DNA of 64,000 nt, taken from positions 12,090,001-12,154,000 of the forward strand of contig OX597816.1 in assembly GCA_951406725.2 (NCBI GenBank). The letters run 5' to 3'. Positions 2,467 through 39,110 of the stretch are shown piece by piece. Every line of letters starts with the position of its first letter. Position 1 is the stretch's first letter. Under the pieces are notes generated by a model. It was given only the letters and a program-made list of their open reading frames with translations. It searched no databases and was not told the origin of the DNA. A program made the position numbers and the translations under genes. Source of the DNA: Octopus vulgaris. Lineage: Eukaryota.

Positions 2467-3597
2467 CTAACCAGTAAATGAGGAGAGTGAGTTTTCCAGC
2501 TGGTGGTGCTTGAAATGGACACATTTTGAGAAAATATTTTTACAGTTATTTAACACATAAGGTTTAGCATAGTCCTTAAGAATTTTGCTTTTCTCCGTGA
2601 TGTAGATTTTACAATGGCCACTCCCATTAATATATAGGCCTGGAGGTTCTATTATTTTCCATCTGATATCACACCGAGTCCCTCGATCTTTGAGGTTCCA
2701 CACATGATTGGCTAGGGATGTGATAAAAAGTCTTTCAGGGACTCTGAAGGATGACCAATGGTTGCAGAAGCATCATTTGAAAGATGTACTGGCTGATCTG
2801 ATACACTTGCAAACTTGGGAGATGGCTATATTTGCACTCTTGGTATATCTCTGGTAGGCTCCAGGCCTTGGGATGCTGTTGGTAACACCGTTGCTAAAGT
2901 TGTTGTTATGGTGCAATGATCCAGTATTGTTATTGCCATGGTTTTCACTTCTGGTCGTATGGTTGACGTTGATGCCACTGACATTAGTGTGAGTGCAACC
3001 GTGGTAACGTATGGCATGGGGCCAGTCACTCCATTAGTCATCATCATCATCATCATCATCGTTTAACGTCCGTTTTCCATGCTAGCATGGGTTGGACGGT
3101 TCGACCAGGGTCTGGGAAGCCAGGAGGCTGCACCAGGCTCCAGTCTGATCTGGCAGAGTTTCTACAGCTGGATGCCCTTCCTAACGCCAACCACTCCGCG
3201 AGTGTAGTGGGTGCTTTTTACGTGCCTCCTGCACAGTATAGTGTTGATGATAAATGTTTGGTCATCATCTGAGGTGGTGGTCCTGGGGTCGTTGGTTACC
3301 TCTGTGCTGCTGGTCCCAGACTGGTCATTATCTCTGACTGTGGCGATTATACAGACATAATATGTGGTTAATCTGCCATTATTGCTGGTAATGCAGATAG
3401 CAGGTCTAGGTGTCACCATAGCTTCGTAGACGACTCTTTCAGCCTCGCATTGGCCTCCAACTGGATCGTTATTGTATAACCTTAAAGAGCAACCTACCTC
3501 CGCCTTTGCTTTGTGGATGCTTGTTAAAATGCTTTTTATGTTAGGTGCACAACTAAAGGAGACTCCTTGGTTGTGCCACTTAAATAAATGCCCACAC

Positions 3598-5340: not shown

Positions 5341-5385
5341 TCTGTGTATCGTGATTTCTGGGTTATTTCCCTTCATCAGCACAGA
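5341..5385 (-). ncRNA. Minimal type-I hammerhead motif (left arm)
   Basis: Minus: tctgtg CTGATGA a ggg aaataa ccc a GAAA tcacga TA cacaga. Confidence 0.7.
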
Positions 5386-5448
5386 ATAATTGTTCAGCTA
5401 GAGGTGGCACTGTTAAATTCCAGTTCGAAATATATAGTTTTCAATTAT

Positions 5449-5493
5449 TCTGTGCTGATGAAGGGAAATAACCCGGAAATCGTGATACACAGA
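5449..5493 (+). ncRNA. Minimal type-I hammerhead motif (right arm)
   Basis: tctgtg CTGATGA a ggg aaataa ccc g GAAA tcgtga TA cacaga; stem I tctgtg/cacaga, stem II ggg/ccc, near-palindromic stem III. Confidence 0.7.
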
Positions 5494-7459: not shown

Positions 7460-7614
7460 TAAGTAATTATTTACATTATTTACATTTGATGTATATTTGT
7501 CCTCATCTTGTTTGTTGTTAACACATTTCAGCTGATATACCCTCCAGCTTTCATCAGGTGTCTTGGGGAAATTTCGAACTTGGATTCTCATTCCTAAGGT
7601 ATTTTTCGATGTTG

Positions 7615-7681
<67 letters not shown>

Positions 7682-7724
7682 CATCATTATTATTGTTATT
7701 GTTCAGGTCACTGCTTGGAATCGA
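7460..7724 (-). mobile_element. Family A element: partial tRNA-like head, (AAT)n, hammerhead-bearing tail (stem III deleted in this copy)
   Basis: Homologous to 32548-32835, 34280-34435, 38098-38684 and 38682-39110. Confidence 0.8.
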
Positions 7725-8185: not shown

Positions 8186-9177
8186 GTTGGCATTAGGTAA
8201 CAGGGAAGGTATCTTACAATTGAAAATCTGTTTTGACAAATCCTATTTGATTTATGCAAACATGAAAAAACTGGATGATGATGATGACTATCATGATGAT
8301 ATACATTAATAATCATTGTTCTATAGAATAATGGAACACTGTATACCGTGACTAGAAAACAATAGTTAAATATCTAATGCATATTTAAATTATCAAACCC
8401 AAATTTATTCAAAATGAAATCTATGAACACGCATACTTATTTGCAGAATAAATTTCCCTGTTGAATGTCATGGAAGAAAAATAGCCTTAAGATGGCATCT
8501 TACCAATGATAATGTATTGAGAAATATCTCATGATCTTGTTCATTTACTCTTAAAAATATCAATTTTCAAAAAAAAAATTTGGAGAAAAGAAATAGAGAA
8601 TGATGTGTCTACCAATATTTAATCAAAATCTTGACATGTAATTATGCAAATCCCAATTAAATATAAGTCTAAAATTATCATAAAAACAATTGTTATCTTA
8701 ATTAACTTAGTTTAATATTTGCGCAAGGTTGACTGCTTCCATGACATTTCAAATACATTATCGTATTTATCGAGAATAAAATTATCAAATATAAACCATC
8801 ATTCAGTTTTTGTTTTCTCCATATCATGATTTGCATGAGTTTGTCTTATAAATCATGTTTGCATTCACCTTATTTCAGCATAATCTTATCTGTACAAGCT
8901 TGTTTCATTCAAATCTATCTTCTCTATCTGTTATTTACCACCTCATGTCATTGACTCTTCTAGATTTATCCATTATAGATCTATTAACTCTAACAACACC
9001 AATGCATCCGTCTTTCACACTTACAACAGGGGCTCTAATATATGGAGTCAGACAACGGAAAACAGAACACAATGAATTCAACATTTTTCAGTATTTTGAG
9101 AAATTTCTCAGTATTTTGTGTTCTGATCGTTGTAAGTTTTAATTTGTCCATAATCACACAAAGAATCGATAAAATAT

Positions 9178-9653
9178 TTATTTCCTTATTGACCACAAGG
9201 GGCTAAACATAGAGTGGACAAACAAGGACAGACAAAGGGATTAAGTTGATTATATTGACCTCAGTGCATAACTGGTACATAATTTATCGACCCCAAAAGA
9301 ATGAAAGGCAAAGTCGACCTCGGCGGAATTTGAACTCAGAACGTAACGGCAGACGAAATACCGCTAAGCATTTCACCCAGCATGCTAACGGTTCTGCCAA
9401 CTTGCTGCCTTCAGTTTCTTATTTCTTTACTACCCACAAGGGGCTAAACATAGAGGGGACAAACAAGGACAGACAAAGGGATTAAGTCGATGATATCGAC
9501 TCCAGTGTATAACTAGTACTTATTTAATCGACCCCGAAAGAATGAAAGGCAAAGTCGACCTCAGCGGAATATGAACTCAGAACGTAGTGGCAGACGAAAT
9601 ACAGCTGAGCATTTCGCCCAGCATGCTAACGCTTCTGCGAGCTCACCGCCTTA
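9178..9653 (-). mobile_element. Two tandem SINE family 1 copies (tRNA-like head, MetaSINE-like core gactttgcctttcatcctttcggggtcgataaattaagtaccag, tail A)
   Basis: ~235-bp unit repeated many times in the window; B-box-like gagttcaaattcc. Confidence 0.9.
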
Positions 9654-10022
9654 AAAATCAATAAAATATCATCGCCATCATCCTCATCATCATTTAACAT
9701 CCATATTCTGTGCAGGTTTGGTATGGATGGTTCAACAGGATCTGATCGGTCTAAGCACTGCATTCTTCTCTCCTGCCTGCTTTATCATGGTTCCAATGGC
9801 TGGATGCTCTTTCTAAGGCCAACTATTTTACAGCTTGTACTGGAGTCTCCTTTCATGCCACCGGCACTATTGCAGACACCATGCAGCTAGCAAGACTATG
9901 AACAATGTATGGTGGTAGTGGTCATGGAAGGGGTAATGAAATATAATATGGTATGACGGTAATATAATGATTTCATACAGCTTGTTAATAATCTCTTCCA
10001 TTTTCTTTACAAAGATTGGATC

Positions 10023-10902: not shown

Positions 10903-11318
10903 TATTTCTTTACTACCCACAAGGGGCTAAACACAGAGAGGACAAACAAAGACAGACAAACGGATTAAGTCGATTATTTAACCCCAGTGTGTAACTGGTA
11001 CTTATTTAATCGACCCCGAAAGGATGAAAGGCAAAGTCAACCTCAGCGGAATTTGAACTCAGAACATAACGGCAGACACAATACCTATTTCTTTACTACC
11101 CACAAGGAGCTAAACACAGAGAGGACAAACAAGGACAGAGAAACGGATTAAGTCGATTAGATCGACCCCAGTCTGTAACTGGTACTTATTTAATCGACTC
11201 TGAAAGGATGAAAGGCAAAGTCGACCTCAGCGGAATTTGAACTCAGAACATAACGGCAGACGAAATACTGCTACGCATTTCGCCCGGCGTGCTAACGTTT
11301 CTGCCAGCTCGCCGCCTT
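10903..11318 (-). mobile_element. Two nested/tandem SINE family 1 copies
   Basis: Second copy starts at aatacc|tatttctttactaccc inside the first. Confidence 0.9.
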
Positions 11319-11900
11319 GCTTAATTATATTTCTATAAATTATATTTCTATAATAAGTAAGGCCAGCCCCTTGAACTTAAGAACATCATGATAAAAGGCA
11401 TGAAATGCTTACGTAGATGTTTCTCAAGTAATCAATATTGATCAGCAAGCAAAGGGGGCAGATTTAAAAGAAGCATCACATATATCCCTCTCTCCTCACT
11501 TCTCTTCACATCATAAATTAAGGGGCCACTCAGACACCTCATCACCATTTTCATATTTCTCCAGCTCCCGATTATAGAAAGCTGGAGTATTGAACCTGCA
11601 AACAGAGTCACCTCAGCATTTACAAAGAAATCTATCATTTAGTTCCATAAAAGGTTATTCTCCTTTCCTTTTACTTGTTTTGCCTAACATACATTGTTCG
11701 TTATGCAAAGGTAATTAATCTTGCAAATGTAATTAATCTTGTGCTATCATGCTGACACAAATACCTATCTATATACATACACATGTCTCTCTTCGCTATA
11801 ATTATTTACCTTATTCTGTTTATAATAACCAACAGAACACGTAACAGAATTAATTAAAACATTATTTCTATCTCATGCAGTTAACCTTTAAATATCACAT

Positions 11901-15294: not shown

Positions 15295-16187
15295 TTTCAA
15301 ATTTTGGTACAAGGTCTGAAATTTTGGGGGTTGGAGTAAGTTGATTACATTGACCCCAGTGTTCAACTGGTACTTATTTTATTGACACTGAAAGGATCAA
15401 AGGCAAAGCTGACCTCAGCAGAGTTTGATCTCACAATGTAAGGATGGACAGAAAGCCGCTGAGTATTTCGTTTGCCTGCCAAGCTAACAATTCTTATTTC
15501 TTTATTGCCCACAAGGGGCTAAATATAGAGGGAACAAACAAGGACAGACAAAGGAATTAAGTCGATTACATCAACCCCAGAACGTAACTGGTACTTAATT
15601 TATCGACCCCGAAAGGATGAAAGGCAAAGTCATTCAGCGGAATTTGAACTCAGTACATAGCGACAGATGAAATACCGCTAAGCATTTTGCCTGGCACGCT
15701 AACGTTTCTTATTTCTTTATTGCCCACAAGGGGCTAAACATAGAGGGTACAAACAAGGACAGATAAAGGAATTAAATAGATTACATCGATCCTAGTGCGT
15801 AACTGCTACTTATTTAATCAACCCCGAAAGGATGAAAGGCAAAGTCGACCTCGGCAGAATTTGAACTCAGAACATAACGGCAGGCGAATTACCACAAAGC
15901 ATTTTGTCCGGCATGCTAACGTTTCTGCCAGATTGCTACCTTAAATGGAAATATTCTTTTCTACTCTAGGTACAAGGCCTGAAACTTTGGAGGAGGGGGC
16001 CAGTTGATTAGATCAACCCCAGTATGCAACTGGTACTTAATTTATTGATCCCGAAAGGATGAAAGGCAAATTCGACTTCGGCAGAATTTGAACTCTACCT
16101 TGGCGGAATTTGAACTCAGAACGTAACGGCAGGTGAAATACCACTAAGCATTTCGCCCGATGTGCTAACGTTTCTGCCAGCTTGCCA
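15295..16187 (-). mobile_element. Stack of four SINE family 1 copies (tail B, tail A, tail A, tail B)
   Basis: Repeated ggatgaaaggcaaagtcgacc core; two alternative tails. Confidence 0.9.
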
Positions 16188-17109
16188 ACAACAGCAACAA
16201 GAGGAGGAGGAGATAGATGAAAAAGAAAAAGGGGCAGATAAAGAAGAAAGGAAGGAGGAGGAAAAGAAAGGAAGGAGGAGTAGAAGTGGAAGAAGAAGAA
16301 CAACAACAACAAGAGCAATAACAAGAAGAACTTTTCCCACTGCCGCTCTCTAAACTAGAGGATGTATAACCTCACCAAGTGACTTCTACAGATCAATAAA
16401 AAGTTATTGGTTTTGCCTTTCATTTACTATTTACAGCTGTAGCACCAAAAATTACAACGGAGATTAACTTTTAATCTTAAATTAATTAGATTATTTTATA
16501 ATTAATTATACTTTGTCCACAGCCTGTTTAATTTATATTAATAATTTCTTTCTTTATTCTATCTATTTTCAACTATTCCTTTTTGATGTAATATGGAAAT
16601 TCCAGTTTGCTATTGACAGCTTTGATATTAGTTTCTGACACCAGTAAAAGTGTTGAATGGAGACTCGGCGGGTGAAAATAAAGGCTGTTGTTGCAGTAGG
16701 ACTGTAGATATTACTGGTACTGGTACCTAATTTGTTAATCCCAAACTATTAGATGAAAGCAACCACTGTCAAATTCATCATTATCATCATGATCATCATC
16801 ATCACCTCTATCATCATCACTGTAATAATTTAATGTTTGGCTTCTGTGTGGTGGAATCAATCTCTTTAAACTTAAGGGCTTAAAGGGATCTTCTTAACCA
16901 CACAGTCTGCTATATTTTGGTAGGTTGTGTAGTTAAGAAGACAACTTTGGAGCCACATGGTTTCAGGTTCAGTATCACTGCATGGCTACATGACACCTTG
17001 GACAAATGTCATCTGCTATAGCCTGGGAGTGACCAATGTCTTGTGAGTGAATTTGGTTGAAGGAAATTGTATGGAAGTCCATTATGTGTGTGTGTGTGTG
17101 TGTGTATAT

Positions 17110-32387: not shown

Positions 32388-32548
32388 ACCTTGTGATCAT
32401 AATATTGTGCAAAAAGAATTTGACAAGATCAGAAAATAAAAAGACCAGCTCATTGAAAGATAAAAACATGTGGTTTTTCAAGGCAATTACAGTACCAATG
32501 ATTTGTAGGGGTACTAACGAATGATCAAAAAAAGTAGTGAAGATTACA
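32388..32548 (+). pseudogene. R4/Dong-type endonuclease fragment
   Basis: PCDHNIVQKEFDKIRK*KDQLIE...MWFFKAITVPM. Confidence 0.65.
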
Positions 32549-32835
32549 GTTCTATATTTAAGAGATGAGGAATTATGTACATTATTTACATTTGACGGAT
32601 ATTTGTCCTCATCTTGTTTGTTGTTAACACGACGTTTCGGCTGATATACCCTCCAGCCTTCATCAGGTGTCTTGGGGGATATTTCGAACCTGGGGTCTCA
32701 TTCCTAAGGTATTTTTCAATGTTATCATTATTATTATTATTATCATCATCATCATCATTATCATTATTATTATCATTATCATTATTATTATTAGTATTAT
32801 TATTACTCAGGTCACTGCCTGGAATCAAACTTGGA
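32548..32835 (-). mobile_element. Family A element (B-box-like head remnant, (AAT/GAT)n, hammerhead tail)
   Basis: Homology to other family A copies. Confidence 0.85.
32626..32671 (-). ncRNA. Intact-looking minimal type-I hammerhead motif
   Basis: Minus: gacac CTGATGA a ggctg gagggtatat cagcc GAAAC GTC gtgtt; stem III reduced to palindromic ACGT. Confidence 0.8.
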
Positions 32836-34243
32836 ATTATTTATAAATTGTGATTTTTTTTTCTCAATTTCTTTTGTCCTTGTTTTTTGAAGTTTGAAAA
32901 TTTAATCTGTATTCATATTGTACTTATCATTCATGAATATTTTCTACTATAGGAACAAGGCCTGAAATTTGATGGGAGGGGCCAGTCAATTAGATCGACC
33001 CAGTATACAACTAGTACTTAATTTATTGACCCTGAAAGGATGAAAGGCAAAGTTGACCTCAGCAGCATTTGAACTCAGAACATAAAGACAAATGAAATAT
33101 TGCTAAGCATGTTATCATTATTATTATTATTATCATTATTAATACCGCTAGGCGTTTTGCCCAGCATGCTAACTATTCTGCCAGCTTGCCACCTTTTCCT
33201 TGACTCCATAGGTCTTCTCAAGCACAGCATATTGCTCTGATATTTCTAGAGAAAATTCTATGTTCCATGCGGTGGTAAACTATTTTATAATGTTACCTGT
33301 ATGGAAAACAGCAATCAAGTAGTGCTATTGGGCTTAATGTAGAGAGTAAAATGCATCAAATTTATTAATTAATTGCTAAAATCAGATTAAAATAATATTA
33401 GTCATCAAACTAATGTTTTATTCATCTCACTGCATAAATATTACTAATTAATTTTAGTTTTTTTTCTCCAGCACTACATTAAGTATAATGGCTCCAACCA
33501 TCATATTCTCTAATATTAACCTGGTAATGGAAATGGAATTAGACTACAATTACTGCTGCATTGGTAATTGTGTTGTTTCAATTCTGTTCTATTTGTATTA
33601 AGGAATGGAGTTTATAGATTTCTTGCCAACAACTCTATGTAACAGATCGATGTAAACATTGTGAGTTTATTATTGTTGTAATATCCTCATGGACAGAAGG
33701 GGGTAAGCTGGAGGAAATGTTAGCACACTGGGTTAAATGCTTAGCGACATTTCAGTTGTCTTTGCATTCTGAGTTCAAATTTCACTGAGGTCAACTTTGC
33801 CTTTTATCCTTTCAGGGTCAATTAAATTAAGTACCAGTTGCATACTGTGGTTGATCTAATCGACTGGCCCACTTCTCCAAAATTTCGGGCTTTGTGCATA
33901 GAGTAGAAACGAAATGTTTAGCAGCATTTCATGTCTTTATGTTCTGAGTTCAAATTCTGCCGAGGTCAACTTTGCCTTTCATCCTTTTGGGGGTCGATTA
34001 AATAACCATATTCAGGGACCTTTTGAGCGAGATGGGTTATTTGACCAGAAGAAAATTCTAACTGGGCCCCACCTGCAAGGTCATACGCTGTTTATCTTGA
34101 TTTGAGATCACCATGTTTCGCACATGTGGTTGTGATGCATGTGCCTGGTGTACCCTTATCAGACGGGTAGTCACGATGGGTATGCTGGGCTTCGTATATT
34201 TTACCCCAGTGTCACTTTGATGGCATGCACTGCTCTCTCACTC

Positions 34244-34279
<36 letters not shown>

Positions 34280-34283
<4 letters not shown>

Positions 34284-34435
34284 TCGAGAAATACCTAAGG
34301 AATGAGAATCCAAGTTCGAAATTTCCCCAAGACACCTGATGACGGCTGGAGGGTATATCAGCCAAAACATTGTGTTAACAACAAACAAGATGAGGACAAA
34401 TTTCCATCAAATGTAAATAATGTAAATAATGTAAT
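34280..34435 (+). mobile_element. Family A tail; hammerhead with GAAA mutated to AAAA
   Basis: gacacctgatgacggctggagggtatatcagccaaaacattgtgtt. Confidence 0.8.
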
Positions 34436-34704
34436 AAATAATTGACAAGTATTTTAGAATAGGAAGTTACTTTTCACTCACCCCGTATACTTTCTAGCTA
34501 CCCCTATATATATAGGCAGATGTAAACACCTTGTCTTCTTTATATGTTTTATCTTCACAGACATTTACAAATACATTCTGTAATACTGGATAACATTTAA
34601 ATATCAGAGTCTTTACATTATGAGAATTTAGAAACTTCGAAACAGATCAAGTGAATTATTTTTTCATAGTAGGACTCAAAATATTTAAAACTACATCAAC
34701 TATC

Positions 34705-35095
34705 GGCGCAGGAGTGGCTGTGTGGTAAGTAGCTTGCTAACCAACCACGTGGTTCTGGGTTCAGTCCCACTGCGTGGCATCTTGGGCAAGTGTCTTCTGC
34801 TATAGCCCCGGGCCGACCAATGACTGGATTTGGTAGACAGAAACTGAAAGAAGACTGTCGTATATATGTATATATATATATGTGTGTGTGTGTTTGTGTG
34901 TGTGTGTTTGTCCCCCTACCATTGCTTGACAACCGATGCTGGTGTGTTTACGTCCCCGTCACTTTTCGGTTCGGCAAAAGAGACCGATAGAATAAGTACT
35001 GGGCTTACAAAGAATAAGTCCCAGGGTCGATTTGCTCGACTAAAGGCGGTTCTCCAGCATGGCCGCAGTCAAATGACTGAAACAAGTAAAAAAAA
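34705..35095 (+). mobile_element. Near full-length SINE family 2 copy
   Basis: ggcgcaggagtggctgtgtggtaag (A-box-like), gggttcagtccc (B-box-like), tail ggccgcagtcaaatgactgaaacaagtaaaa. Confidence 0.9.
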
Positions 35096-35607
35096 AACCC
35101 TATGTCTTTGCATGTATTGCCAGAAACAGCCAGGTTCCTTTCTCTAACATTTTGCATAGCTCAACCTATGCAAGTTAGTGTGTGATAAAACAAAATAGGA
35201 ATTTTGAAAGAAGTTTCTATAAAACTAGTTTCTGCACATCGAATGATTTGGGGGTCCACTGGAATGAAATAATAATCAAAGGGGTCCATAGGTAAAAAAT
35301 GGTTGAGAACCCCTACTCTAACCTCTTGCCTGGCACACAGCCACTTCTCTTGGTTCCACTCCCTCTCTCGGGTGAAAGGGCCTTGTCTTGCAAGCCACAT
35401 AGTGACCCCATGGGTGTTGAAACCCCATAAAAAACACTGGGGATTGTGTCACATAAAAAGCATCCATTACGCTGTAAAGTGGTTGGCATTAGGAAGGGCA
35501 TCCAGCAGTAGAAAACATGCCAAAACAGACAACTGGGTCCTGGTGCAACTCTCTGGCTTGCTAGCTCCTTTCAAACTGTCCAACATAGAAAAACAAATGT
35601 TAAAGGA

Positions 35608-35616
35608 TCATGATGG

Positions 35617-35651
<35 letters not shown>

Positions 35652-35763
35652 GGGGTGGTAGTGGTGGGGGTGGCAGTGGTGGAGATGGTTGTGGTGGTGG
35701 TGGTGGTGGTGGTGATGAGGTTGATGATGATGAAGATGATGGTGATGACGATGATAATAATGT

Positions 35764-35798
<35 letters not shown>

Positions 35799-35995
35799 GT
35801 GATGATAACAATGATGTTGATGATGATGATGATGGTGATGATGGTGATGATGATGATGGTGGTGATAACGATGATGGGGATGATGGTGATGATGATGATG
35901 GTGGTGATAACAATGATGATGATGATGATGACGACAACGACGATGATGACATTGATGATGATGACAAAGATGATGATGATGATAATCATGATAAT
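35608..35995. repeat. (GAT)n/(GGT)n microsatellite continuing the tail of a SINE family 3 copy
   Basis: Follows aaatgttaaaggatcatgatg. Confidence 0.9.
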
Positions 35996-36169
35996 GTTTA
36001 ATGCGTTGAAATAGTCTTCAGTTTGAAGGGGAAGAGGGCTGAGGAGGAGTGATAAGGTAGCGTGTTGGGGTGGGGTGGGGGTTGCGAGTGTGAAGGAAGA
36101 TGTTTTCACAGTGATGCGTTTGAATTAACTGTTAAGACATATTGTAAGGAAGCTGAGAGGATGTGGAGT

Positions 36170-36532
36170 TGTTGGGAGAGGAAGAAGAGATGGTGATGGG
36201 GAGAGGAAGAGGGAGAAGGTGCGAGAGAGCGTGAGTGGGTGGTGGTAAGAGGTTGGGGAAAGGAAAGTGAAAGAGAGAGAGAGAAGGGGAGAGTGTGTGT
36301 GTTTGTGTTGAAATGAAGTTTGAGAGATGGAAGAGAGATTACGGATGCTGAGTTAAATTGGGAGATGAGAACCAGTGATAAGAAGCAGGAGAGAGGGGGA
36401 GAGGGAGGGAGAGGGAAAGAAATATAGAGAGAGGAATGGGGGAGGGGAGACAGAGAGAGAGAGGGGGGGAAAGGAGAGAGAGAGAAAGAGAGAGAAACAG
36501 ATAGATAGATTGATAGCTAGCTAGACTGATAA

Positions 36533-36585
<53 letters not shown>

Positions 36586-36696
36586 GGGACAGAGAGGGAG
36601 AAACAAATAGATAGATTGATAGGTAGCTAGACTGATAGAGAGAGAGAGAGAGAGAAACAGATAGATAGATAGATTGATAAATAGCTAGACTGATAG

Positions 36697-36740
<44 letters not shown>

Positions 36741-36874
36741 TGAGAGAGAGAAAACTACAAAGAAAGACAAAAAGAGATAGATAGACAGAGAGATAAAGAG
36801 AGAGAAAAAGAGAGAAAGAAAGAGAGAGAGACAGATGGATTGATAGCTTGCTAGACTGATAGATAGATGGATAG

Positions 36875-36911
<37 letters not shown>

Positions 36912-37075
36912 ATAACAAAGAAAGAGTGTGAGTTAGAAAGAGAAAGAAAGACAGAAAGAGAAAGACTGACGGATAGAGAGGGAAAGAGAAAGAGACAGAA
37001 AGAGACAGATAGATTGATTGATAGATAGAGAGACAGAGAGAGACCAAGAAAGAAAGAGGGAGAGAGAAATGCATA
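36170..37075. repeat. Purine-rich (GA)n/(GATA)n field with repeated tagctagactgata blocks
   Basis: Read directly. Confidence 0.9.
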
Positions 37076-38097
37076 GAAAGTGTTCAGTAAAGTAAAAGGT
37101 TAAGTAAATTATAGTAAATAGGGATCATTAGCGAGGGGAGAAGGGAGAGGATAGGGAATTTGAGAGAATAGAGAATAAAGAAGAAGGAGTCGTGTGTGGG
37201 TGGTAGCAGAGGTAGGTTAATAAAACAAACAAACAAGAAGAAGAAATATATAAGAGAAGAGAAAAGCGTAGTAAAGTAAGATGGAGATTAAGCGAGAGAT
37301 AAGTTTTGAAAGCTTTCCTGGAACAACATGATTGCAAAGAAGAGAATGTTTTCTAAACTGCAAAATCTAGAAGCAGTTGTTGCGAAAATGGTGTGTGCAC
37401 TCTAGCAAACAAGATCACATTTGCAGATAGATCGAATTTGTTGCTTGTAGTTTTAATCTTTACAAGATACACTTGTACATGTAAGCAAAGGTTTTAGGTA
37501 TGTGTATATGTGTGTGTGTTTTTGCTTTTACTGCGTTTTATTTCATTTTGTTTAATTATATTTATTTATCCATTTATTTTCGCTTTTTCCTCCAATGGAA
37601 TCAACTGTAGAATTATTGGGAGCCAGCAAACGTTCTATAGTTGTCTTTCGAAGTATATTGAATTAAAAAGAAAAGCAAGCAAGAATTTTCACCCCTATTT
37701 CTTTCCAAGAATCTTCCTCTTACTGACTGACAAGTTCAGAATGATGGAATAAATTTCACAAATAATCTTATTTTAACTCTGTAGGATGGCTATTTGTTCC
37801 GAAGCAGATTATTGGTAAACAGTCGGATAAATGTAAGGAAATATCAAAATATTGGAAACATTGATAAGAATCGGTGTGGCAAATGCATTTTCTGTTAATG
37901 TATTAAACAGGTTTCCTTTTCATATGCACCAATTTATTTACTGAGGAAATATTTTAGCTGATTAAAAAGAAGGAAAGAAAAAAGAAGGAAAGAAAAAAGA
38001 AGGAAACCGAAGAATGACTTTTTCTTTCTTCATAATGTATATATTACACATGAGCAGAAGCTACTTTAATACTGTCACTCACTCAACTGTTGATGTA

Positions 38098-38721
38098 ACT
38101 GTTCTACATTTAAGAGATGAGGAATTATGAACACTATTTACATTTGATGGATATTTGTCCTCATATTGTTTGTTGTTAACACAACGCTTCGGCTGATTTA
38201 CCCTCCAGCCTTCATCAGGTGTCTTGGGGAAATTTCAAACCTGGGTTCTCATTCCTAAGCCATTTTTTCGATGTTATTATTATTTTTTTTTTTTTTCTTC
38301 AAATTTTCTTCCATTTCTCACCAAGTGTTTTCCATACACCTAGGGCAGAGAAGCTCATTGTGTGCATTCCCATATTACACACATAAATTCACAGGTAAAA
38401 TAAGTATTTAAAAAATTATTGAATAAATTCATGAATGGATGTTGTTTTCACAGCGATAGTGCTCTTCTCGATACATGAGTTGTTCCAGTTAACATGATTT
38501 TTCGCACTTCCTGTAGGGATGGTAAGCCTGGTATCATTTTCAAATAGGTTTCAGTACCTTTTTTTATCCTTCTTAGAGATCCTACAATCACTTATTAATA
38601 CTATTGTTATTATTATTATTCAGGTCACTGCCTGGAATCGAACTCAGAATCTTTGGGTTAGTAACCTGTGCACTTAACCACTACTAACCCCAAGATTCTG
38701 AGTTTGATTTCAGGCAGTGAA

Positions 38722-38762
<41 letters not shown>

Positions 38763-38902
38763 TACTACTGAGTTTGTTTTAAGAACGAACTACTGAGTTT
38801 GGTTTAATGGCCTACCAATGTATGCTATGAGTTTCTTTGCCCTAGGAGTCGGGAAGACACTCGGCAAGAAATGGAAGCAGATTTGAAAGAAGAAAAAAAA
38901 AA

Positions 38903-38955
<53 letters not shown>

Positions 38956-39110
38956 TATAATAGTGATGATAATAACATTGAAAAATACATTAAGAATGAG
39001 AACCCAGGTTCAAAATTTCCCCAAGACACCTGATGAAGGCTGGAGGATATATCAGCTGAAACGTTATGTTGACAATAAACAAGATGAAGACAAATATTCG
39101 TCAAAGTTCT
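38098..39110. mobile_element. Head-to-head pair of family A elements (~1-kb imperfect palindrome), each arm with a Dong-type 3' end in its (AAT)n
   Basis: Central inverted heads 38625-38663/38682-38720; hammerhead tails at ~38177-38223 (-) and ~39025-39070 (+). Confidence 0.85.
38283..38591 (-). pseudogene. R4/Dong-type LINE 3' end
   Basis: VIVGSLRRIKKGTETYLKMIPGLPSLQEVRKIMLTGTTHVSRRALSL* plus UTR. Confidence 0.85.

Follow-up and report, generated by a model that had tools for sequence, protein, structure and literature searches.

Copies of the repeat family in the octopus window

The window analyzed here is a stretch of 64,000 nucleotides (nt) from Octopus vulgaris (GenBank assembly GCA_951406725.2, contig OX597816.1, forward-strand positions 12,090,001 to 12,154,000). 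It contains copies of a dispersed repeat composed of a tRNA-like head, an (AAT)n linker and a tail, which a sequence-only reading had taken for a ribozyme-bearing short interspersed nuclear element (SINE) mobilized by a Penelope-like element (PLE). Head, linker and tail together are the pseudo-long terminal repeat (pLTR) of an autonomous Penelope/Poseidon-type PLE. Positions below are those of the window.

Sequence comparison located five tails, pairwise identical at 85-93%, on the minus strand at 7613-7466, 32723-32548 and 38275-38101, and on the plus strand at 34280-34435 and 38974-39105. All five copies named in the sequence-only reading were present, but 38098-38684 and 38682-39110 belong together as an inverted pair, joined head to head with a 4-nt overlap, so that the window holds four loci, not five. 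Head sequence across the (AAT)n linker accompanies four of the five tails, in agreement with the earlier description. The A box is present only in the head piece at 38684-38620, the other three pieces being 22-39 nt long.

In the minus-strand copy at 32548, the tail (32548-32723) consists of the first ~155 nt of a PLE open reading frame (ORF) and the 22 nt before its ATG. Its frame aligns to the N-terminus of the PLE protein P0010, and it has the long form of the 3' end, which includes an optional extension of ~25 nt. The tail holds the sole intact minimal type I hammerhead of the window (32626-32671, minus strand), assigned by sequence, fold and the features given in PMC4209133; features of published systems are stated here and below as far as the accessible portions of the papers describe them. 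The PLE ORF has its first in-frame ATG, counted from the TGA that ends the head, at 32699-32701, and a 1-nt frameshift follows later in the same copy. An (AAT/GAT)n linker (32724-32806) leads to the 3', B-box-side part of a 5'-truncated head (32807-32837).

The plus-strand copy at 34244-34431 has a linker and a tail with a short 3' end and a damaged hammerhead core, without a head. We considered the 32548 and 34280 copies as a single insertion and rejected this because no target duplication was found. In the inverted pair, the left arm (minus strand) has a tail with a long 3' end (38101-38275), a linker broken by ~300 nt of another repeat (38276-38619), and a head with most of the A box and the B box (38620-38684). 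The right arm (plus strand) has a 5'-truncated head (38682-38720), a linker broken by ~140 nt of another repeat (38721-38973), and a tail with a short end that stops ~18 nt early (38974-39105). A target duplication was looked for around 38101-39105, and none was found. The solo arm at 7463-7724 (minus strand) comprises a 22-nt head remnant (7724-7703), a linker, and a short-end tail from which the hammerhead palindrome is deleted. At the Rfam gathering threshold and with ARAGORN, neither a hammerhead nor a tRNA was called in the family copies of the window.

The repeat immediately upstream of the 34244-34431 copy (33998-34243) belongs to a family that ends in (AAT)n and recurs in or beside the linker (also at L006, L040 and L042). 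The inserts at 38300-38600 and 38765-38900 likewise recur in or next to the linker, which seems to be a landing site for AAT-targeting elements.

Family size and linkage of head and tail

The genome searched comprises 2.8 Gb. An exact tail 21-mer occurred 8,060 times and an exact head 21-mer 4,252 times, against 0 for the reversed control of each, so the family is not a product of chance. With the tail 21-mer intact in 33 of 102 arms, the genome would hold ~25,000 tail arms. Twelve 50-kb blocks, picked irrespective of content, contained six family loci, four with a head and five with an inverted arm. Copies were ~4-6% diverged from the column majority. Direct tandem arrangement was seen in only 1 of 72 clusters (L012), where the flanks suggest a local duplication.

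The validation set consisted of 80 head-motif places in coordinate order, with one place already within L503 skipped; a few of its loci are paralogous (L451-453, L468/L472). Among the loci analyzed overall, L046 was omitted as a duplicate of L045. Within 900 nt downstream of the head, 70 of the 80 validation loci had a tail on the same strand, which confirms the proposed linkage of head and tail. The median linker length was 44 nt (54 validation arms).

The parent Penelope/Poseidon-type element

A degenerate pattern for a reverse transcriptase (RT) motif matched 120 times genome-wide and its reversed control 0 times. Among the 30 loci fetched, 17 carried a same-strand head ~1,000 nt downstream, in the order ORF stop, ~40 nt, head, linker, tail, and 24 had a head or a tail downstream. 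At three loci (L328, L329, L330) the 5' pLTR continued directly into the ORF, in a partial tandem in which the pLTR holds the ORF start. The tail's open frame, whose ATG is at tail base 23, aligns with the N-terminus of P0010, an 847-residue PLE protein. The tail is the start of a PLE ORF and is present in the autonomous PLE; it is PLE-derived, as the sequence-only reading had supposed, and not the 3' end of a long interspersed nuclear element (LINE).

The RT of the parent matched RVT_1 in Pfam (E=1e-10). It was 58% identical to P0010, 44% to an 836-residue Anolis protein that we infer to be the studied Poseidon, 42% to a lamprey protein, and 29% to the genome's Neptune-like RT. A C-terminal GIY-YIG endonuclease with no CxxC linker before it was recognized by eye in the L302 and L322 translations, compared with P0010 and P0088; Pfam gave no match on the GIY-YIG fragment. 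On the tests made (RT, GIY-YIG, pLTR, extension, and inverted copy with duplication), the element belongs to the Penelope/Poseidon clade. All parent copies seen were broken by stops or frameshifts and lay ~7% from the column majority.

Short copies and ORF-linked copies had the same majority bases except at one tail column, located at a variable 9-nt repeat, and the best column in this comparison reached p=0.002 among 175. Their divergence was 5.6% versus 6.3% in the tail (26 versus 56 tails) and 8.4% versus 8.2% in the head (18 versus 36 heads). Since head, linker and tail are found in the autonomous PLE, and short and ORF-linked copies agree in the majority bases and divergence of head and tail, the apparent SINE is the pLTR.

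As partners of the tail, 50 GIY-YIG loci (Neptune-like and other types) and 30 Nematis-like loci were rejected, as they gave no tail match. The search for Naiad-like remnants failed, these being not directly compared to the tail, and a variant-hammerhead pattern search for a partner failed too. The rejected families have different hammerheads or none, and mostly (TA)n ends. The names Neptune-like, Nematis-like and Naiad-like are those that we take to fit the genome's other PLE groups, at least four in number (L121-L169, L201-L230, L231-L250, L270). Neptune-like families are young, with many 781-codon open frames, and mostly end in (TA)n. Nematis-like elements have a long-helix hammerhead and again mostly (TA)n ends; the window holds a weak match (E 2e-4) to the endonuclease of such an element at 2494-2790 (minus strand). 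Naiad-like copies are decayed, and L270 is one more hammerhead-bearing family, with mostly (TA)n ends.

A protein search with the tail frame returned only one exonized copy, a predicted Octopus sinensis protein that begins with the tail peptide. In this predicted 368-residue isoform (P0001), by its look presumably a TNF-receptor-type membrane protein, the first 37 residues come from the tail frame, either through exonization via the PLE ATG or through misprediction.

Insertion signature

The 3' ends of the copies were bimodal, forming two groups ~25 nt apart. One long and one short 3' end were combined in 29 of 33 outward-facing pairs of the first set and in 27 of 37 validation pairs, the others of which were short-short (7) or intermediate (3), with no long-long pair. 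Both sets together gave 56 long-short pairs out of 70 and at most one long-long pair, and the ORF-bearing pairs were long-short in 9 of 9 cases. Direct repeats flanked 20 of 29 pairs versus 22 of 812 controls in the first set. In the validation set, repeats of 9-18 bp flanked 22 of 27 pairs versus 18 of 702 controls, so target duplications, whose pattern the sequence-only reading had listed for checking, are present. Long-short pairs inside target duplications indicate that each pair is one insertion, with the 3' end of the element at both sides.

PLEs are known for inverted copies that are 5'-truncated and for an extension that may be present at one end (PMC8557442, PMC3846280). The anole PLE cuts and extends both strands, and its RT starts at two neighboring internal sites, which correspond to the extension (PMC11167929). 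The copies of the octopus family were inserted by PLE machinery. To this extent the idea of a SINE mobilized by a PLE holds; what falls is the notion of an independent SINE with a borrowed tail, as the head belongs to the autonomous PLE.

The hammerhead

The intact hammerhead at 32626-32671 has a 5-bp helix I, CUGAUGA, an extra A, a 6-bp helix II, GAA and a palindromic ACGU, with a predicted cut site between 32631 and 32630. The hammerhead at 39018 has one mismatch in helix I, and the remaining three window copies have changes in the core or the palindrome. The family bears the sequence features of a minimal type I hammerhead, but within the window only the 32548 copy keeps it intact. The minimal PLE type is characterized by the hammerhead core, an extra base before helix II, a G10.1-C11.1 pair, a helix II of 6-8 bp, a helix I of 4-5 bp and a palindromic helix III (PMC4209133). 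The majority columns of 80 tails fit all of these features.

Core and palindrome were kept in 25 of 80 tail copies. We saw no selection on the hammerhead after insertion (divergence 5.4% in the core versus 4.9% in the rest), and folding of the monomer was not above that of shuffles (z -0.4 to -1.6). For this hammerhead type, self-cleavage is expected of the dimer. Genomic 5' ends just past the predicted cut site were found in 14 of 42 rows of the first set (p=0.001) and in 2 of 19 rows of the validation set, counts from which internal-deletion rows were left out (10 of 52 and 5 of 24, respectively). As the excess was not repeated, we dropped it as a footprint of self-cleavage in vivo.

A tRNA-like stretch with z 5.5 to the genome's own tRNA-Cys occurs at L281:3880-4100 (G000:C14:75231279-75231499), immediately followed by another minimal hammerhead, which differs from that of the family but equals it in length. 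A single partial relative turned up, and the stretch may be what is left of another PLE end with a tRNA-like head.

The tRNA-like head and the 5' wall

The head contains an A box at +14 and a B box at +57 from the first G of a 12-nt palindrome, the B box following the A box by 43 nt. Among the only ~seven isotypes compared, it best matches the genome's tRNA-Arg (z about 7, with shuffled heads at no more than 2.8), which bears out the tRNA-like, A/B-box-like head of the sequence-only reading. Elsewhere in the genome, seven tRNA-Cys/Ser-like genes are clustered within 3 kb (L176).

The 5' ends of head-bearing arms form a sharp wall. In the validation set, which required the head motif so that ends beyond +9 were invisible, 61 of 80 arms ended at 0 to +9 and none at -1 to -16, while 19 continued toward the ORF end; the 38 arms not classed as head-to-head all ended at 0 to +9. 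In the first set, 4 of 80 arms continued, and 34 of the 41 arms not joined through the palindrome ended at -1 to +15. A 21-mer located 29 nt upstream of the head occurred 897 times genome-wide versus 4,252 for the head 21-mer. By our estimate, loss elsewhere along the element is roughly 0.2% per base, and the drop at the wall is ~twenty times steeper.

The majority sequence of ~2.75 kb (depth 1-4 copies in the first 750 nt) contains 16 TTT runs and no TTTT, and single copies have 0-2 private TTTT runs. Related ORFs of similar T content average 3.0 TTTT runs per kb, with none in 3 of 41, and the genome's other PLE ORFs have 1-8 runs per stretch of 1.0-1.9 kb. As a trace of transcription by RNA polymerase III (Pol III), the lack of TTTT is suggestive only. 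Among related loci with 3' flank, no pair of A and B boxes was found after the ORF.

Several points weigh against a Pol III promoter in the head. Besides the few isotypes compared, the blind range beyond +9 and the related ORFs that also lack TTTT, ARAGORN did not call the head even at a lowered threshold, and Rfam likewise reported no tRNA. The 12-nt palindrome coincides with the wall, and palindromes at pLTR 5' ends are known from other PLEs (PMC3846280). In synonymous-codon shuffles of single stretches, the lack of TTTT was not significant. Poly(A) reads from one related species mapped to both strands, neither their starts nor their ends piled up, and the head was left uncovered. Finally, the one dissected Penelope promoter, from Drosophila, is described as like TATA-less LINE promoters (PMC2377424).

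Origin of the short copies

With these points taken into account, we think it probable that the tRNA-like head of the pLTR is an internal promoter, likely for Pol III, and that the resulting RNA is copied by the element's own enzyme from internal starts, giving SINE-like short copies. A promoter in the head would explain why ~three-quarters of head-reaching copies start there, and would also account for the SINE-like look.

In the unit as found, the ORF end is followed by ~40 nt, the head, (AAT)n and the ORF start with the hammerhead, and tandem copies run from the tail into the ORF. Insertions as found usually have two outward-facing ends, one long and one short, inside a target duplication of ~13 bp. 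By analogy with the anole element (PMC11167929), both target strands would be nicked, and each would prime complementary DNA (cDNA) at one of two internal sites ~25 nt apart. Most head-bearing arms are seen to halt at the wall 14 nt upstream of the A box, which may be the RNA 5' end set by the A and B boxes. The enzyme would bind the ORF start and initiate at the first internal site, and in an RNA that starts at the wall only the ~300-nt leader would then be copied. ORF-bearing copies would need read-through to the next pLTR. The two cDNAs, one per strand, would be joined through short overlaps or through the 12-nt palindrome at the wall.

A bolder version, which we regard as possible but rather unlikely, is that an autonomous coding Penelope is transcribed end to end by Pol III from a captured tRNA promoter and makes its own SINE as a by-product of RT starting in the 5' leader. 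If so, end-to-end transcription would account for the lack of TTTT over 2.7 kb.

The wall could also arise without any start at the head, the short copies being ordinary 5'-truncated PLE copies in which the 12-nt palindrome ends synthesis by fold-back or cDNA pairing. The position of the palindrome coincides exactly with that of the wall, head-to-head arms make up 23 of the 80 in the validation set, many arms with an end at 0 include a few bases from the inverted arm, and self-priming by a palindrome has been proposed for rotifer PLEs (PMC3846280). However, among the 38 arms outside the head-to-head class, 27 end at +1 to +9, where copying of the palindrome's far arm is still incomplete, and none at -1 to -16; moreover, the 6-bp helix II of the hammerhead produces no comparable wall. 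We consider this explanation unlikely.

Alternatively, the wall could be the start of an internal promoter for RNA polymerase II (Pol II), as in Drosophila Penelope, the tRNA-like head then being a passenger, such as an old SINE inserted into the 3' untranslated region. Coding RNA normally requires a cap, which speaks for Pol II, and head plus (AAT)n resembles an inserted simple SINE. The Penelope pLTR does hold an internal promoter (PMC2377424). A passenger head fits poorly, however, with a wall that stands 14 nt before a consensus A box and a B box 43 nt after it, and the element has no shared TTTT, unlike the genome's other PLE ORFs, so that we doubt this account as well.

It appears quite improbable that the short copies form a separate SINE lineage that propagates itself through short master copies, which Pol III would transcribe and the PLE mobilize in trans. 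Short copies far outnumber ORF-bearing ones (the ORF body was absent from all 6 random loci and all 4 window loci), and a few solo arms look like copies of a head-to-head pair, in that they show the palindrome center in the reverse reading or start with bases from the inverted arm. Yet most arms retain the PLE's own reading of the palindrome, short and ORF-linked copies are told apart by no robust diagnostic base and diverge to a similar degree, and the short copies are without the downstream ORF stretch that the anole PLE requires (PMC11167929). Lastly, although the linker does receive other repeat insertions, a chance landing of separate head and tail elements at (AAT)n, or a tail that is a LINE 3' end, is refuted by the fixed head-tail order in 70 of 80 loci, the presence of both in the PLE after the ORF, and the identity of the tail as PLE coding sequence.

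The family departs from the usual definition of a SINE in two respects. The copies do not form a separate lineage that shares only its 3' end with a partner, and the 3' end is not LINE-derived with a terminal A-rich or simple repeat, the microsatellite being internal. On the tests made, the element is a member of the Penelope/Poseidon clade that nevertheless works like a SINE.

Relation to known systems

The octopus element resembles the Penelope/Poseidon PLEs of Anolis (Poseidon, PMC11167929), Adineta (PMC3846280) and D. virilis (PMC2377424) in its single ORF with RT and C-terminal GIY-YIG. It shares with them a pLTR with a minimal hammerhead, the first ORF codons and an optional 3' extension, as well as the inverted 5'-truncated copy, short target duplications and a palindrome at the pLTR 5' end. 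Some members of the clade also have a spliceosomal intron in their 5' region. It differs from them, as far as they are described, in the tRNA(Arg)-like A/B-box stretch and (AAT)n run within the pLTR and in the single wall at which ~three-quarters of head-bearing arms start; its extension is ~25 nt compared with 30-40. The tRNA-like A/B-box head inside a PLE pLTR is the unusual part. A PLE with a tRNA-like pLTR, or such an octopus family, was not found in the full-text literature, a coverage outside which lie most subscription papers, Repbase and Dfam.

Promoter sequence of the Pol III type derived from small RNAs also occurs in the terminal repeats of the TRIMp3 elements Helenus, Cassandra and Ajax, that of Helenus being tRNA-like (PMC10886601). 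TRIMp3 elements are non-autonomous LTR elements with a primer-binding site (PBS), a polypurine tract (PPT) and duplications of 4-5 bp, whereas the octopus host is an autonomous PLE with a pseudo-LTR. Its arms are inverted and its duplications measure 9-18 bp; PBS and PPT were not searched for.

The schistosome Sm-alpha/Sj-alpha repeats (PMC2770079, PMC6765202) likewise have a type I hammerhead placed behind a tRNA-derived promoter of the Pol III type, and they reach a high copy number. They are SINE-like tandem repeats with a cleaving hammerhead, and the accessible descriptions identify no partner. The octopus family, in contrast, has a minimal PLE hammerhead and inverted pairs, and its parent PLE was found. 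Short non-coding copies tied to PLEs, with a relation to hammerheads or pLTRs, are known as non-LTR retrozymes (10.64898/2026.07.22.740005, PMC7761336), and short non-coding PLE-tied copies also as non-autonomous PLEs (MRC1, PMC8557442; butterflies, PMC6685494). Retrozymes are head-to-tail tandem monomers, unlike the octopus family with its single direct tandem, and for neither group do the accessible portions mention a tRNA head.

Octopus is reported to have the tRNA-derived SINEs OK, OR1 and OR2, attributed to Ohshima and Okada in 1994, of which we take OR1 and OR2 to be tRNA-Arg-related. OR2 has been listed as a CORE SINE (PMC4758252). The present family shares with these SINEs a tRNA-derived head. 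No CORE-like middle was seen in it by eye.

A dispersed and far commoner family (D13, 18 copies counted), which has no relation to the pLTR repeat, occupies window positions 9074-9748, 10981-11414, 15364-16190 and other positions, and an Rfam mir-16 match at 5365-5469, barely above the cut-off, has the appearance of a short inverted repeat rather than a microRNA.

Implications

The result bears on annotation: ~25,000 arms that would be catalogued as a SINE belong to the ends of PLEs. As two-ended insertions number in the thousands, they allow the in vitro result from the anole element to be tested on a genome, and the two strands each appear to use a different one of the two RT start sites. 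A tRNA-derived promoter in a PLE pseudo-LTR, combined with internal RT initiation, would offer a route to SINE-like repeats that needs neither a LINE nor a separate lineage. It would extend the TRIMp3 idea of small-RNA promoters in terminal repeats to the third class of retroelements, and as a model for how Sm-alpha-like elements arose it can be tested.

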